NCBI GenBank assembly: GCA_042218325.1
Contig: JBDGRE010000005.1
Coordinates: 25,428 to 89,427 of the forward strand
Source: Candidatus Nanohaloarchaea archaeon
Lineage (GTDB): Archaea > Nanohalarchaeota > Nanosalinia > Nanosalinales > Nanosalinaceae
Reading direction: 5' to 3'
Length of the DNA: 64,000 nt
Shown here: piece after piece, positions 12,483 through 52,172 of the stretch
Layout of the letters: each line of letters opens with the position of its first letter
How positions within the stretch are numbered: position 1 is the first letter of the stretch
Notes under the pieces: model-generated
The model's input: the letters and a program-made list of their open reading frames with translations, nothing else
Told to the model about the DNA's origin: nothing
The model's database searches: none
Translations under genes and position numbers: made by a program

Positions 12483-12620
12483 TGTTGTTGGATCCCCCTT
12501 TGATGAGCATGAGTGAAGTGAAAGCTGTGTGAAGTGAACCTGTGAGTATGAGCTGTAAGCATCATTTCTTTTCGGCCTCCGAAGACCTCGGTCTTCTTTG
12601 TGTCCGAAAATCTACGATTT

Positions 12621-13061
12621 TCATCCATCCTGTAGGGCCTCGACTTCTTCCTGGAACGATTCCGCGTTTTCGAAGCTGTCGTACACCGATGCGAACCTGA
12701 TGTAGGCGACCTCGTCCCGCTTCTTCAGCGCCTCCTTGACGAACTCTCCTATCTTTTCCGCCGGGATTTCCTTGCGGTCGACCACGTTCTGCCGGACCTC
12801 TTCGACCGCCTCGTCGATACCCTGTTCATCGAGCTGGGTGTTCTCCGCGGCCTTCTCGATGCCGGACCGTATCTTCTCCTCGCGGAAGTCCTCCCGGGCA
12901 CCGTTTTGCTTCACGACCTTGACGTCGTACTTCTCCACGGTCTCGTAGGTCGTGAAACGCCGGTCGCATGAGGCGCACTCCCTGCGTCTCCTTACGCGTT
13001 CCTTCGATTCCCTGGTGTCGACCACGTTGGTCGAGCATGCTTCGCAGTACGGGCATTTCAT
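12621..13061 (-). CDS. nrdR: transcriptional repressor NrdR
   Basis: MKCPYC..VVDTR..RRRREC..C.RRFTTYE, ATP-cone, VAYIRFASVY. Confidence 0.97.
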   Translation of the reverse strand: MKCPYCEACSTNVVDTRESKERVRRRRECASCDRRFTTYETVEKYDVKVVKQNGAREDFREEKIRSGIEKAAENTQLDEQGIDEAVEEVRQNVVDRKEIPAEKIGEFVKEALKKRDEVAYIRFASVYDSFENAESFQEEVEALQDG

Positions 13062-13107
13062 CGCTTGGATACACCTGTATCTGTCTTTAACTCTTTGGTG
13101 CAGTGCA

Positions 13108-13155
13108 CCACTACATATAGGGGAGAATCTTTCCCCTACCCCCGTATATGTCGTG
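13108..13155. promoter_or_regulatory. tandem NrdR boxes upstream of nrdR-nrdJ
   Basis: CCACTACATATAGGGG (13108-13123) and CCCCGTATATGTCGTG (13140-13155), 32 bp apart, resembling the palindromic NrdR box. Confidence 0.65.
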
Positions 13156-13288
13156 CTTTCGCATTCTTCAATTGATGCCCTCCGCTTATTAACCCTTCCA
13201 TGTTGAGCGAGATTGAACTTTTTGAATAACCGTCAAAATGCTCCAGGATTCCGGGCTGTTTTAATTTTTCTCCCCCCTCCGGTTTTTC

Positions 13289-14137
13289 ATGGCGAACGGT
13301 CCACATTGCTCCGACGTCGCGCAGCGATACATACTGCAAGAGATGAGGGCTGTAGGGGCGGGAGCCGAGCTCAGGGAGGTGACAGATTTTTCATCGTCCC
13401 ACGATGGAGAGTTCGAATGGAGCGTGGGCGAGGTTTTCCGGGACAGCGTATTGAGAGATTTCGATGCGAAAGGGCACCGGGATTATCCGCTGGAGGAGCC
13501 GGAGTACGGCTTGAGAGCGCTGGACGATATCTATAGTATTATAGAGACGACTTCCGACGGGAGCAAGAGGCTGGAAGGTCTCCGCGCGCTCGACATCGGC
13601 TGGGACTTTCCCGTGGACGGTAGAACCGCGAGAGAATGGAAAAAGAACTACCGGGACACGGGACTCCTTGACAGAGAAGGAGAAGTCACGCCGGAAGACC
13701 GAGTCTTCCTCGACACCGATCCCCGCAACTACCAGCTTGAGGGCGTCGGCGTGGAGGATGTGGGAGAGGTTTACCGTGACCTCACCACGAAGAAAGTCGG
13801 GGAGAACCGGGCGCCGACCGGCCAGAAGCTGGAGGCGCTGTTCCTCTACAGTACAGGAATGAGCCACAAGGACGTCAGCCGGGCCACCGGGCTGGCTTAC
13901 AGGACTGTCAAGAGCTTCGCCTATACCATGCGGGATGAACACGGGATTTTAACGAACAGCTACAGGTTGACGCACGAGGGCTTCGAGTTCGCGAACATGG
14001 TGATGGACCAGCTCGACGGTCTGGAAGCCGCGACCGAGGAGAGGATAGACGAGGAGCATGGCGACGATTTGCGGGTCGCTGACTTGGAGGATTTCCGCGG
14101 GAACGGCTACATGGCGAGGGCGCTCGCCGGCAACTGA
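13289..14137 (+). CDS. hypothetical protein with C-terminal winged HTH
   Basis: GMSHKDVSRATGLAYRTVK..YRLTHEG. Confidence 0.55.
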   Translation: MANGPHCSDVAQRYILQEMRAVGAGAELREVTDFSSSHDGEFEWSVGEVFRDSVLRDFDAKGHRDYPLEEPEYGLRALDDIYSIIETTSDGSKRLEGLRALDIGWDFPVDGRTAREWKKNYRDTGLLDREGEVTPEDRVFLDTDPRNYQLEGVGVEDVGEVYRDLTTKKVGENRAPTGQKLEALFLYSTGMSHKDVSRATGLAYRTVKSFAYTMRDEHGILTNSYRLTHEGFEFANMVMDQLDGLEAATEERIDEEHGDDLRVADLEDFRGNGYMARALAGN

Positions 14138-14167
14138 TTTTTGAAGCTTTCACTTCATGGTTGTAAT

Positions 14168-50311: not shown

Positions 50312-50488
50312 ATGGAGGAAGAAAAACTTGAGCACCGGCTCGCGGTCTACTCTCTCGCGATCAATTCTGCCGGCCTGTTCTTCGCAGCCGCTGCCCTGGT
50401 TTTATGGGGTCCTGTAGCTGCGTTAGCTGTTTTCGGCGTGTCAGTGATTTCCCTGCTGTACGCGGTTTACCGGAAAAAGGTCGTTTGA
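50312..50488 (+). CDS. small two-TM protein (58 aa), below the ORF-track cutoff
   Basis: MEEEKLEHRLAVYSLAINSAGLFFAAAALVLWGPVAALAVFGVSVISLLYAVYRKKVV. Confidence 0.5.
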   Translation: MEEEKLEHRLAVYSLAINSAGLFFAAAALVLWGPVAALAVFGVSVISLLYAVYRKKVV

Positions 50489-50490
50489 GT

Positions 50491-51860
50491 CATTCCTCGA
50501 AACGTATCTCGAATCTTGCGCCGCCTTCCGCGGAGTCCATGACATCTATGTCCCAGCCGTTGATATCGACTATCCGGTTTACGATAGACATGCCGAGGCC
50601 GTTGCCGTTCCATGACCTCGAGAAGCCTTACTCGAAGATGTCTTCTTTGATGTCGTCGGGTATACCCCGGCCGTCGTCTTCATAGTAGAAACCGTTTTCA
50701 AGCGTGCCGACCTGTATGTTGACCTCGCTATCGTTGTGTTCGATGGAGTTGGTTATCAGGTTCTCGAACATGCTTACCACCCCGGATCGGCCACCATGAA
50801 CTCAGTGCTGTCCACAACCTCCCACTCTGTCGGGCCGTTCGCGAAGTAGTAGGCTTCTTTGAACACGTCTTCCAGCTCGAGCTCCTTCTGCAGGTCTTCT
50901 TCTTCCGTAGTTATGAGTGAAAGCGCATCGATTATGTCCTCCATCCTGTCGAGCGCCTCCTCGACCTTCCGGAAATCCTCGCTTTCACCGGTCTCCTGCG
51001 CCAGCTCAAGTTAGCCTTCGGCAACGTTGATGGGGTTCCGCAGGTCATGGCTGACAAGACTGCTAAACTGCTTGAGTCGCTCGTTCTGTTCCTCGAGCTC
51101 CTCCTTTCTCTTCTTCCTGCGTGTGATCTCGCGGCAGTTCGCCAGCAGGCCGTACTCGGGTCGTCAAGTCTCTGCCGGCTCAGGGCCTCTATCCAGACGT
51201 AGTCTCCGTTGCTGTGCCTGAAACTGAACTGCACTCTCTCGATGCCTTCACGGTCCTGGTTCACCTTCTTCTTGAACTTCCTCCGGCCTTTTTCCTGTTC
51301 ATCCGGGTGAACGAACTCGAGCGCGTTCTGGCCCACGACCTCCTCTTCGCTGTACCGAGAACTCTTTCGACGGATGGGCTGATGTACCTGAACTTGCCTT
51401 CGCGGTCAAGCACCACGATTATGTCGCGGGTGTGTTTCCATGAGAGAGCGGAACATCTCGTAGTTCTGCTCAAGCGCCTCTTTCGTCCTGTACCTTGACA
51501 CAAGGTTCTCTATCCGGTTGACAAGCACCTCGTACGTCTCGTCGCTCGACTTGCTGAAATAGTCAGCGGCCCTCCATATCATCCGGCTGGGTATCTCTTC
51601 ACTTCCCTTGCCTGTCAGGAGGATGAAGGGCAGTCTCTCGTATTTTTCCCTGACTTCCTCCATGAACTCTATACCATCCATACCAGGAATGTCGTAGTCG
51701 CTTATGACACAGTCGATTTCCTCTTCCTCTATAATCTCCAGCGCCCGTTCCGGTGAATCCGTATCTATTATCTCTATGCTGTCGGTCTTGTCTTTTATCT
51801 TCTTCTTGAAAAGCTCCAGGAACTCGGAATCATCATCGAGATGCAGGACCGTGATACCGT
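50491..51860 (-). pseudogene. receiver-PAS-histidine kinase hybrid, frameshifted
   Basis: LHLDDD..SDYDIPGMDG..LLTGKG; PAS (YISPSVERVLG, VHPDE); VSHDLRNP; FENLITNS; GLG; split across frames, with stops. Confidence 0.85.
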
Positions 51861-51884
51861 TCGAGGTAACCTTCTCAAGTGTTA

Positions 51885-51998
51885 TGGACTCTCCGGGATT
51901 TGAACCCGTCCGAAAATCGTAGATTTTCTAAGAGGATATCAAATCCTTTGGAGAGGAAACAAAACAAAGTGAAGTGGACTCTCCGGGATTTGAACCCG
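51885..51998 (+). mobile_element. twin-hairpin micro-insertion duplicating the tRNA-Ala(GGC) 3' end
   Basis: 24-bp perfect repeat 51885-51908/51975-51998; C-GAAAATC-GTA-GATTTTC; inverted copy 51939-51955. Confidence 0.75.
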
Positions 51999-52048
51999 GG
52001 GCCTCTTCCATGCCAAGGAAGCGTTCTGCCAGGCTGAACTAAGAGCCC
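51975..52048 (-). tRNA. tRNA-Ala(GGC)
   Basis: GGGCTCT/AGAGTCC; CTTCC-TTGGCAT-GGAAG; GGTTCAAATCC. Confidence 0.95.
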
Positions 52049-52172
52049 CAAACTTCTGGAAGTTTGATCACCAGAGTGCATGGTTCCAGAGGAACCATGC
52101 GTTTAGTGCTGCCTGAGCGTAACCAGACGCGGCTTATGAGTTTAGTTCTGCAGGTAAAGCCTAAATAAGCTT

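Follow-up and report, generated by a model that had tools for sequence, protein, structure and literature searches.

Stem-loop units flanked by duplicated gene ends at tRNA and protein gene termini of Nanohaloarchaeota: a candidate family of very small insertion elements

Repetitive extragenic palindromes (REPs) and bacterial interspersed mosaic elements (BIMEs), which in bacteria go together with RAYT transposases, occur as tens of imperfect palindromes of 15–30 nt that are mostly intergenic, are often arrayed with 10–12-nt spacers and share a conserved stem foot. The units described here resemble them in these respects and would appear, by analogy, to work most like such REP- or MITE-type small palindromic repeats (MITE, miniature inverted-repeat transposable element). 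They were found at gene termini in a 64,000-nt stretch (hereafter, the window; i.e. C31:25428-89427, contig JBDGRE010000005.1) of the genome of a Candidatus Nanohaloarchaea archaeon. The units have a common architecture, exceed chance expectation, keep a fixed polarity relative to the gene end, exist as presence/absence alleles and show turnover of their hairpin copies. The REP foot is described as GTAG or CGTC (PMC3733652), whereas that of the units is C-GAA..TTC. REPs are also without a duplication of the neighbouring gene end and without an antisense arm, and the units are not accompanied by a RAYT/Y1_Tnp gene in their genome. MITEs, of which the haloarchaeal IS200/IS605-derived palindrome-associated elements are one kind, are small, non-coding, repeated, polymorphic between strains and flanked by direct repeats, as are the units. 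The repeat length is fixed by the transposase in MITEs but varies from 4 to ~43 nt here; the genome contains no parent insertion sequence or transposase for the units, and their polarity towards the gene end is strict. No terminal inverted repeats were seen by eye in the single insertion inspected (i.e. a clean insertion in the relative G002).

Integrative elements that rebuild tRNA genes also duplicate a 3' or 5' tRNA segment and leave the gene intact, and tyrosine recombinases and classical examples of such elements are present in the same genome. The units, however, measure 45–155 nt, have no integrase between the repeats and occur also at protein-gene starts and operon junctions, and the junctions of true elements lack hairpins. 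Short hairpin-forming insertions are tolerated in expressed genes in the cases of Rickettsia palindromic elements, mitochondrial byp elements and T4 gene 60, the byp elements being flanked by matching take-off and landing codons (i.e. a direct repeat). Here, in contrast, the frame is neither kept nor hopped, and the leader open reading frame (ORF) stops exactly on the real start codon. Template-switch (quasi-palindrome) mutations copy neighbouring sequence in inverted form, in some cases with a direct duplication alongside, but leave unexplained a hairpin family common to many loci and many genomes. Integron attC sites and IS200/IS605 ends are imperfect, bulged hairpins with one defined active strand, and the loop polarity of the units suggests that one strand matters here also; in contrast to those systems, there is no IntI-type cassette array and no HUH enzyme, and target duplication occurs in neither of them. 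A hairpin as the recognised structure, as in IS200/IS605 or REP/RAYT systems, has its counterpart in perfect 5–9-bp stems of co-varying sequence, whereas insertion without target duplication does not, the target repeats in the window being 7–32 nt long. The units fail the defining tests of HUH systems, fixed-duplication MITEs, retroelements and casposons. A description of such units was not found in the literature searched, supplementary files lying outside that search.

The source genome (G000) derives from a salt-lake metagenome and comprises 1.07 Mb in 35 contigs with 96% completeness. Comparisons were made with a same-genus genome (G001), with further relatives (G002, G004, G006, G018, G022 and G058), with further loci (designated by three-digit L-numbers, e.g. 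L095) and, phylum-wide, with the 70 genomes of the phylum in the collection. G001 and G018 are single-contig genomes; 516 kb of the 916-kb genome of G058 was used, and counts for G058 are accordingly partial. Four sequencing runs were examined as Logan contigs: X1, a possible source sample of the window whose contigs come from a different assembler; X2; X3, from a second study; and X4, which holds a strain 94–98% identical to the window. Several part boundaries and degenerate copies were placed by eye.

Carriers of units in the window are tRNA-Leu(CAG), tRNA-Leu(TAG), tRNA-Glu, tRNA-Ala(GGC) and the start of lysS. In every clear unit, read inwards to the gene, the outer copy of the gene end comes first and is separated by one to three bases, the last of them C, from a perfect stem-loop of the GAA..TTC type; a linker of 5–6 nt (with T first in most units), an antisense stretch, a loop and the intact gene follow. 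The antisense stretch, located between hairpin 1 and the intact gene, is complementary to the gene end and forms a second hairpin. The 5' and 3' units of one gene are mirror images in layout. Each unit contains one or more GAA..TTC hairpins of 14–28 nt, all of which share the frame C-GAA..TTC-T. A repeat search of the window returned direct repeats at 37531/37581 (15 nt), 39431/39493 (17 nt), 39623/39702 (23 nt), 39639/39771 (17 nt), 48591/48660 (26 nt) and 51877/51967 (32 nt), and repeat lengths of 7, 12, 15, 17, 23, 22–27 and 24–32 nt were recorded, as compared to 4 to ~43 nt elsewhere. GAA..TTC hairpins between repeats were placed at 37549-37567, 37770-37793, 39680-39701, 43643-43661, 48616-48629 and 51912-51928, and also at 12581-12596 and 12606-12622. 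These results bear out a preliminary description of the window, which had proposed a repeated family of one architecture with a duplicated gene end at each target. That description had also regarded hairpin 2 as an inverted copy of the target; in short 3' units, hairpin 2 is mainly new sequence and takes only ~3 nt from the tRNA end.

Both ends of tRNA-Leu(CAG) carry a unit on the plus strand. The 5' unit (37531-37595) comprises an outer copy (37531-37545), CAC, a hairpin (37549-37567), a linker (37568-37573), an antisense stretch (37574-37581) and an inner copy (37581-37595) that enters the tRNA, and the syntenic Leu gene of G001 has the same stem. In the 3' unit (37746-37801), a terminal hairpin that includes the last nt of the tRNA (37746-37764) is followed by a linker (37765-37769), a hairpin (37770-37793), a G and an outer 3'-end copy (37795-37801). 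The 5' unit of tRNA-Leu(TAG) (39431-39492, plus strand) is without a GAA hairpin: its outer copy (39431-39447), 3-nt loop and antisense arm (39451-39465) are followed by an A-rich spacer up to the tRNA start at 39493, and homologues are present at Leu genes of G001 and G018. Two nested units with GAA..TTC and GCA..TGC hairpins lie at the 3' end of this gene (39646-39782, plus strand). The first contains an antisense stretch (39663-39674), a linker, a hairpin (39680-39701) and an outer copy (39702-39724), and the second a terminal hairpin (39722-39740), a linker, a GCA..TGC hairpin (39746-39769) and an outer copy (39771-39782). On the minus strand, the 3' unit of tRNA-Glu(CTC) (48591-48660; tRNA at 48661-48736) has an outer copy (48591-48613), TC, a hairpin (48616-48629), a linker (48630-48634), an antisense stretch (48635-48646) and a spacer with a small terminal hairpin; its antisense arm was better than shuffles with p about 0.003. 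The 3' unit of tRNA-Ala(GGC) (51877-51973, minus strand; tRNA at 51974-52048) has an outer copy (51885-51908; 32 nt at 91% from 51877), TCC, a hairpin (51912-51928), a linker, an antisense stretch (51939-51946) and a spacer.

The frequency of these structures was compared with shuffled sequence, as the preliminary description had suggested, and with random sites. Genome-wide, 36 local exact repeats of at least 14 nt at a spacing of 25–200 were found versus 0 in three shuffles, and perfect GAA-based hairpins numbered 123 in G000 versus 14 after shuffling. A duplication of at least 13 nt combined with a GAA hairpin was present at 12 of 80 tRNA ends (11 of 40 genes) in G000 as compared to 4 of 1500 random sites; an 11-nt threshold had given a background of 8–15%. 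By the same test, G001 had such ends in 11 of 70 cases, G018 in 5 of 76 and the 56% of G058 used here in 3 of 56, each versus 1 of 1500 random sites. Among units with a duplication of at least 17 nt, the antisense arm was better than shuffles (P < 0.05) in 11 of 17. Beyond tRNA genes, the same hairpins occur in pairs or arrays, 9–12 nt apart, at protein-gene starts and operon junctions, and also within tRNA introns. Of 166 GAA hairpins with a stem of at least 6 bp, 52 fall outside the crude ORF map of G000, in the ~12% of the genome left as non-coding (i.e. an estimated coding share of ~88%).

One explanation for the duplications is that they are assembly artefacts, an outcome that the preliminary description had named as a refutation. 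Five of the 36 local repeats are exact 55-nt repeats at a spacing of exactly 155 that look like assembler (k-mer 55) artefacts (G000 C2:74469/74624, C7:5955/6110, C13:15910/16065, C14:5700/5855 and C14:16878/17033), one of which adjoins a run of N before tRNA-Lys(CTT). For the units themselves, however, X1 contigs covered every unit with 0 gaps, one X2 contig spanned the entire lysS leader and one X3 contig spanned both Leu(TAG) 3' units, while the single-contig genomes G001 and G018 hold the same kind of unit. Because contigs of three runs span the filled alleles, the units are not an assembly artefact, and the probability left to this explanation is negligible.

Empty and filled alleles, a comparison also proposed in the preliminary description, were found both among relatives and at strain level, where the evidence rests on contigs. 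The Ala(GGC) 3' site, the L3|L4 junction and a junction on contig C32 are filled in G000 and empty in G001, with 15 nt across a stop/start overlap duplicated at the C32 junction. A tRNA-Glu gene is filled in G002 and empty in G006, the two sharing an identical downstream flank and differing by a ~50-nt insertion with an 8–9-nt duplication, and the Lys(CTT) 5' and Tyr 5' sites are filled in G058 and empty in G018. In the X4 strain, one contig runs directly from 43594 into 43749 (both flanks >255 nt, 8-nt ambiguity), such that 154 nt carrying both lysS units are missing exactly between repeats and the outermost copy serves as the working N-terminus. Another X4 contig joins 39643 to 39779 (35 nt on one side) and lacks 135 nt with both Leu(TAG) 3' units, again exactly between repeats. 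The same strain retains the Leu(CAG) 5', Glu 3' and Ala(GGC) 3' units. A unit closely similar to the outer lysS unit exists in another genus (G004), with hairpin foot and linker unchanged and the outer copy shorter by the same one codon; the X4 lysS allele is therefore read as a putative precise loss, the alternative being recombination with an empty allele.

The hairpins, which the preliminary description had considered to share little primary sequence, in fact group into families. One 17-mer type has 11 copies in G000 and 11 in G001, but none of eight colinear G000 sites has that hairpin in G001. This type was found in 49 of the 70 genomes of the phylum with up to 15 copies each, while a reversed-pattern control gave 0 in all 70. 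A scan of a wider genome collection for hairpin plus T-loop returned, among the matches listed, apparent chance hits in unrelated bacteria, and a distribution outside the phylum is not inferable from it. Within G001 the same hairpin type stands beside different tRNA ends, as had been anticipated for a tag shared between targets. Where the tRNAs of different species diverge, the outer copy has the sequence of the resident tRNA; this applies to Leu(GAG) in G018 and to tRNA-Cys, whose hairpin is a different one in each of G000, G018 and G058. The duplication was therefore made from the local gene, or the copies were homogenised.

A model without any element is possible but unlikely. In it, replication or repair forks that stall at the ends of genes would fold back with a change of template, and the hairpins would be side products multiplied by local duplication. 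The succession of direct copy, inverted copy and direct copy is the order expected from template switching, and a variable duplication length (7–32 nt in the window), perfect stems with 2–4-nt loops, outer copies that match the resident gene and the failure to find a transposase all agree with it. However, the hairpin and linker, as read at Glu, do not derive from neighbouring gene sequence, the 17-mer type occupies 11 unlinked sites per genome and recurs in most genomes of the phylum, and a single frame is common to all hairpins.

Polarity of the hairpins was examined by reading the loops from the outside towards the gene. A purine-rich loop was observed in 28 cases and a pyrimidine-rich loop in 3, with 5 tied (binomial p = 5e-6), and the bias was the same at 5' and 3' ends; this sign test supports the earlier claim of a fixed polarity relative to the gene end. 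The purine-loop strand is antisense to the tRNA at 3' units, but is the sense strand at protein starts and 5' units. The polarity thus goes with the gene end instead of with transcription and is set by DNA geometry around the gene. The common triloops are GAA, GGA, GTA and GCA; such triloops are especially stable in single-stranded DNA and are typical of DNA rather than RNA hairpins. The Leu(TAG)-type 5' unit lies upstream of an A-rich box (a likely TATA element) situated ~27–33 nt before the tRNA. Together with the polarity, this position favours a DNA-level process.

Persistence of units at the same site was assessed across species. At Phe 3' as at Glu 3', the hairpin is a 14-mer without differences between species or genera, that of Glu being present also at tRNA-Glu of G022. 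At Ser(TGA) 5' the hairpin and linker are kept, and in the G001 copy the loop harbours a further two nested hairpins together with a 7-nt duplication. The Leu 5' and Lys(CTT) 5' stems are kept between species. A twin hairpin at the L2|S19 junction is present in both G000 and G001 with compensatory stem changes, whilst the frame and peptide of its upstream ORF (uORF) differ.

The start region of lysS (43595-43799, minus strand), which encodes a class I LysRS according to Pfam, contains two nested units in front of the true GTG start, in agreement with the preliminary description. An outermost copy of the first seven codons, beginning with ATG (43748-43769), starts 22 nt after a TATA box (43792-43799); next come a hairpin (43717-43744), a linker, an antisense arm (43696-43710), a middle copy (43663-43689), a second hairpin (43643-43661), a linker, an inner antisense arm (43620-43636) and the true start with the first codons (43595-43618). 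The outer antisense arm is complementary to the middle copy and the inner one to the true start region. Two uORFs traverse the units on the minus strand: uORF1 (43769 to 43686; 27 codons) runs from the outermost ATG to a TGA overlapping the middle ATG, and uORF2 (43689 to 43615; 24 codons) from the middle ATG to a TGA overlapping the true GTG. Among 30 genomes of the order, the lysS start carries a unit in 10 and none in about 20; outer copies range from intact to decayed. By eye, the ORF from the outer ATG was open and ended on the true start in 10 of 10 unit-bearing leaders. A scripted check recovered the outer-copy ORF in nine, found an equally long alternative in L095 and also flagged three unit-less loci. 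A metagenome scan returned the single locus L102, an empty lysS allele.

The antisense arm of lysS follows the codon choices of its own inner copy. As MAFFT shifted this arm between rows, alignment-based pair counting was replaced by a permutation of own versus other targets. The pairing sum was 103 for own targets versus 72 +/- 7 for permuted ones and 0 of 5000 permutations reached 103, although relatedness inflates such tests. The arm thus tracks its own target, as had been proposed earlier; such co-variation would be equally expected if a gene-end hairpin were kept by selection or gene conversion. Overlapping stop and start codons are described as a termination-reinitiation device in archaea (PMC6728339). 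Translational bypassing at lysS was rejected in favour of termination-reinitiation, all 10 leader ORFs ending on the start codon. The mostly synonymous differences between lysS copies, and a G018 outer copy close to the working N-terminus of G058, had prompted the idea that the unit imports a foreign gene start. This idea was not needed: transcription and the uORF still start at the outer copy, the outer copies at tRNA genes agree with the resident gene and decay is seen in several outer copies.

These features could also reflect structures at gene boundaries that the host selects for leader or trailer processing, for protection of mRNA or tRNA ends or as coupling relays, the duplications being only their route of origin. 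This explanation does not exclude that of an insertion element, and as the explanation in itself it is rather improbable. The compensatory stem changes at L2|S19, the preferential pairing of the lysS antisense arm with its own target, the open uORF ending on the start codon of every unit-bearing lysS leader and the retention of the same hairpin at the same tRNA end across genera would fit it. Several points speak against it: the loop polarity goes with the gene end on the DNA and at 3' units runs antisense to the tRNA; the 5' unit of the Leu(TAG) type precedes the likely TATA element; orthologous sites stand empty in many cases without apparent cost; and the triloops are of the DNA type. Two RNA-level possibilities were considered separately. 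A C/D-box guide RNA for the T-loop was rejected: three to four 3' units have a CAGA-like word at the right distance, yet a C-box-like word was present only at Glu, no consistent boxes were found in eight aligned 3' units and no Rfam match was obtained at gathering score or at E up to 10. A bulge-helix-bulge (BHB) motif (two 3-nt bulges on opposite strands with a 4-bp helix between them, expected at the unit borders) could not be drawn by eye at Glu or lysS, no BHB search tool having been run. The stop/start overlaps at units argue for translation and not for outer-to-inner splicing.

Enzymes that might act on the units were sought with Pfam profile scans over six frames of G000. No matches were obtained for Y1_Tnp, TnpB (PF07282), the IS110 DEDD transposase (PF01548) or Cas1, nor for DDE_Tnp_1, rve or Transposase_mut, other DDE families not being scanned. 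RVT_1 likewise gave 0 matches, and outer 3' copies carry trailer bases rather than CCA. Y1_Tnp is present in 4 of 70 genomes of the phylum as compared to 49 of 70 for the hairpin. The HUH/IS200-type or IS110 enzyme suggested in the preliminary description is unsupported, and of the co-occurring enzymes that it had proposed to look for (HUH/Y1, IS110, reverse transcriptase, tyrosine recombinase) only seven tyrosine recombinases (PF00589) were recovered. Three of these adjoin tRNA genes. Classical att repeats of 15 nt, 22.5 kb apart, flank an element at tRNA-Arg(GCG), and a 2.4-kb case is present at tRNA-Glu(TTC). Recombinase and element sites in G000 are C30:2398-25122, C5:16396, C25:7677 and C13:14394, with integrases beside tRNA-Ala(TGC) and tRNA-Asn, and tRNA-Pro 3' fragments are scattered on C2, C5 and C16.

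The recombinases and the direct repeats of tRNA ends raise the question of whether the units are integrase scars (i.e. attL/attR arrays left at tRNA genes after deletion of the element body). The recombinase genes beside tRNA genes, the classical att repeats at tRNA-Arg(GCG) and tRNA-Glu(TTC), and the GAA hairpins that precede the tRNA-Pro 3' fragments of integrated elements are compatible with such an origin. It is nevertheless very unlikely: two intact elements were examined and the junctions of the 22.5-kb element at tRNA-Arg(GCG) are without a GAA hairpin, units are found also at 5' ends, protein starts and operon junctions and inside introns, and each remnant would need to have been trimmed to the same 45–60-nt architecture.

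The explanation we prefer, and hold at about even confidence, is that of a phylum-wide family of tiny stem-loop insertion units at gene termini, with variable target duplication, repeat-to-repeat loss, selective filtering and an enzyme acting in trans. A unit would land just inside or beside a gene terminus and be bracketed by a direct duplication of that terminus, so that one copy stays joined to the intact gene. Insertion would be a DNA-level event that copies the resident target, possibly by target-primed or copy-choice synthesis or by a single crossover of a small hairpin DNA carrying a target copy, and would be performed in trans by a not yet recognised enzyme. Loss would occur via recombination between the two target copies, and selection may retain only harmless copies. 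At protein genes, the retained leaders would be those with an open frame that terminates in an overlap with the true start codon (ATGA or GTGA), such that ribosomes reinitiate.

Several observations weigh against this explanation. Units at the same site keep the hairpin, and sometimes the linker, in species that are 70–78% identical (Phe, Glu, Ser(TGA), Leu and Lys(CTT)), and many units are therefore old residents rather than fresh insertions. The outer and inner lysS copies differ by 25–35%, and the lysS units are therefore old also. Compensatory stem changes at L2|S19 and lysS, together with the kept hairpins, would fit host selection or gene conversion as well as an active element. The duplication length is variable, unlike that of a staggered-cut transposase, and no transposase was found by the Pfam scans of the 96%-complete G000. 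Both strain-level differences remove two nested units at once and may be more simply read as deletions than as insertions. Circle junctions or excised forms were not seen among the contigs, the only material searched for them.

A self-guided mode of insertion, with the antisense arm as the re-programmable guide that the preliminary description had proposed, is unlikely. In such a mode, a minimal DNA hairpin without a classical transposase would use its antisense arm to find its site and to prime the copying of that site, always rebuilding the gene. The actor would be an enzyme of the host or of the symbiont host (e.g. a tyrosine recombinase or repair polymerase), and the triloops stable in single-stranded DNA and the strict gene-ward polarity would be its handles.

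If mobile, the units would be among the smallest insertion elements known. A variable and long target duplication would be unusual and would let essential genes (i.e. tRNAs, lysS and ribosomal-protein operons) survive hits, which would explain how a 1-Mb symbiont genome tolerates ~50 or more such hairpins in its non-coding DNA. In leaderless genes, all insertions that survived are now relay uORFs, which makes these leaders a natural test case for termination-reinitiation. For annotation, the units are a source of false starts, uORFs, partial tRNA matches and assembly breaks at tRNA genes. They may be used as strain-level markers for Nanohaloarchaeota populations, and the missing enzyme is a concrete, testable gap.

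Gene calling in the window is itself affected by introns. ARAGORN with introns allowed detected 43 tRNA genes in G000, many with introns of 48–143 nt. Default ARAGORN sees two of the tRNAs of the window and Rfam three; both overlook the intron-bearing Leu(CAG) and Ala(CGC) genes, which were recovered by ARAGORN once introns were allowed. GAA..TTC hairpins lie within the intron of tRNA-Leu(CAG) (37632-37647, plus strand) and of tRNA-Trp (28923-28943; gene at 28881-29093, minus strand). Contigs of X1, X2 and X4 contain an extra hairpin-type 5' unit at tRNA-Leu(CAG) (window 37590-37608).

The preliminary list of sites was correct for the clear tRNA and lysS units, but the sites at the nrdR end and 5' of tRNA-Ala(GGC) yielded hairpins only. 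Two GAA..TTC hairpins lie just past the nrdR stop (12581-12596 and 12606-12622, minus strand), with target duplication not verified. A relay uORF of 49 codons (12628 to 12479, minus strand) runs through both of them to a TGA overlapping the ATG of ribonucleotide reductase; both nrdR and the reductase gene were confirmed by Pfam. In G000 and G001 alike, a relay ORF ties the nrdR stop (ATGA-type overlap) to the reductase start (ATGA) and encodes a His/Thr-rich peptide, the G001 version (~907513-907634) having 27 codons by eye and no hairpins. The two hairpins immediately 5' of tRNA-Ala(GGC) (~52049-52066 and ~52078-52100, minus strand) were placed by eye and no duplication was found with them. 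A degenerate remnant 3' of tRNA-Ala(CGC) (49990-50058, minus strand; gene at 50059-50257) contains, by eye, a terminal hairpin, an antisense-like stretch and a decayed hairpin. An X1 contig of equal depth has ~80 nt of the intron of this gene (window 50130-50210) swapped for 19 other letters.

Other repeated features adjoin tRNA genes. A conserved word of ~16–27 nt with the core CTGGTTACGCTC accompanies tRNA genes of several genera, without a fixed side or orientation (window 52105-52125; G000 C1:68909-68930; 3' of tRNA-Glu in L005 and L011; 3' of tRNA-Arg(GCG) in G018), and is often followed by a CATGG..CCATG hairpin. Perfect hairpins of at least 5 bp with a 5' arm beginning within the final 6 nt of the tRNA were present at 11 of 75 tRNA genes of G000 and G001, as compared to a random-site rate of 3%; all 11 have a 3-nt loop, mostly TTC-like. 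A permissive Rfam search gave a weak twister-P1 ribozyme match at 18630-18693 (minus strand; 27.3 bits versus a gathering score of 67.2, E = 0.12), which is probably due to chance. Finally, an 867-nt stretch (window 50785-51651), unrelated to the hairpin units, is missing from the X4 strain (joint of 50784 to 51652, >255 nt on each side); its ORFs encode a PAS fold and a partial response-regulator receiver domain.

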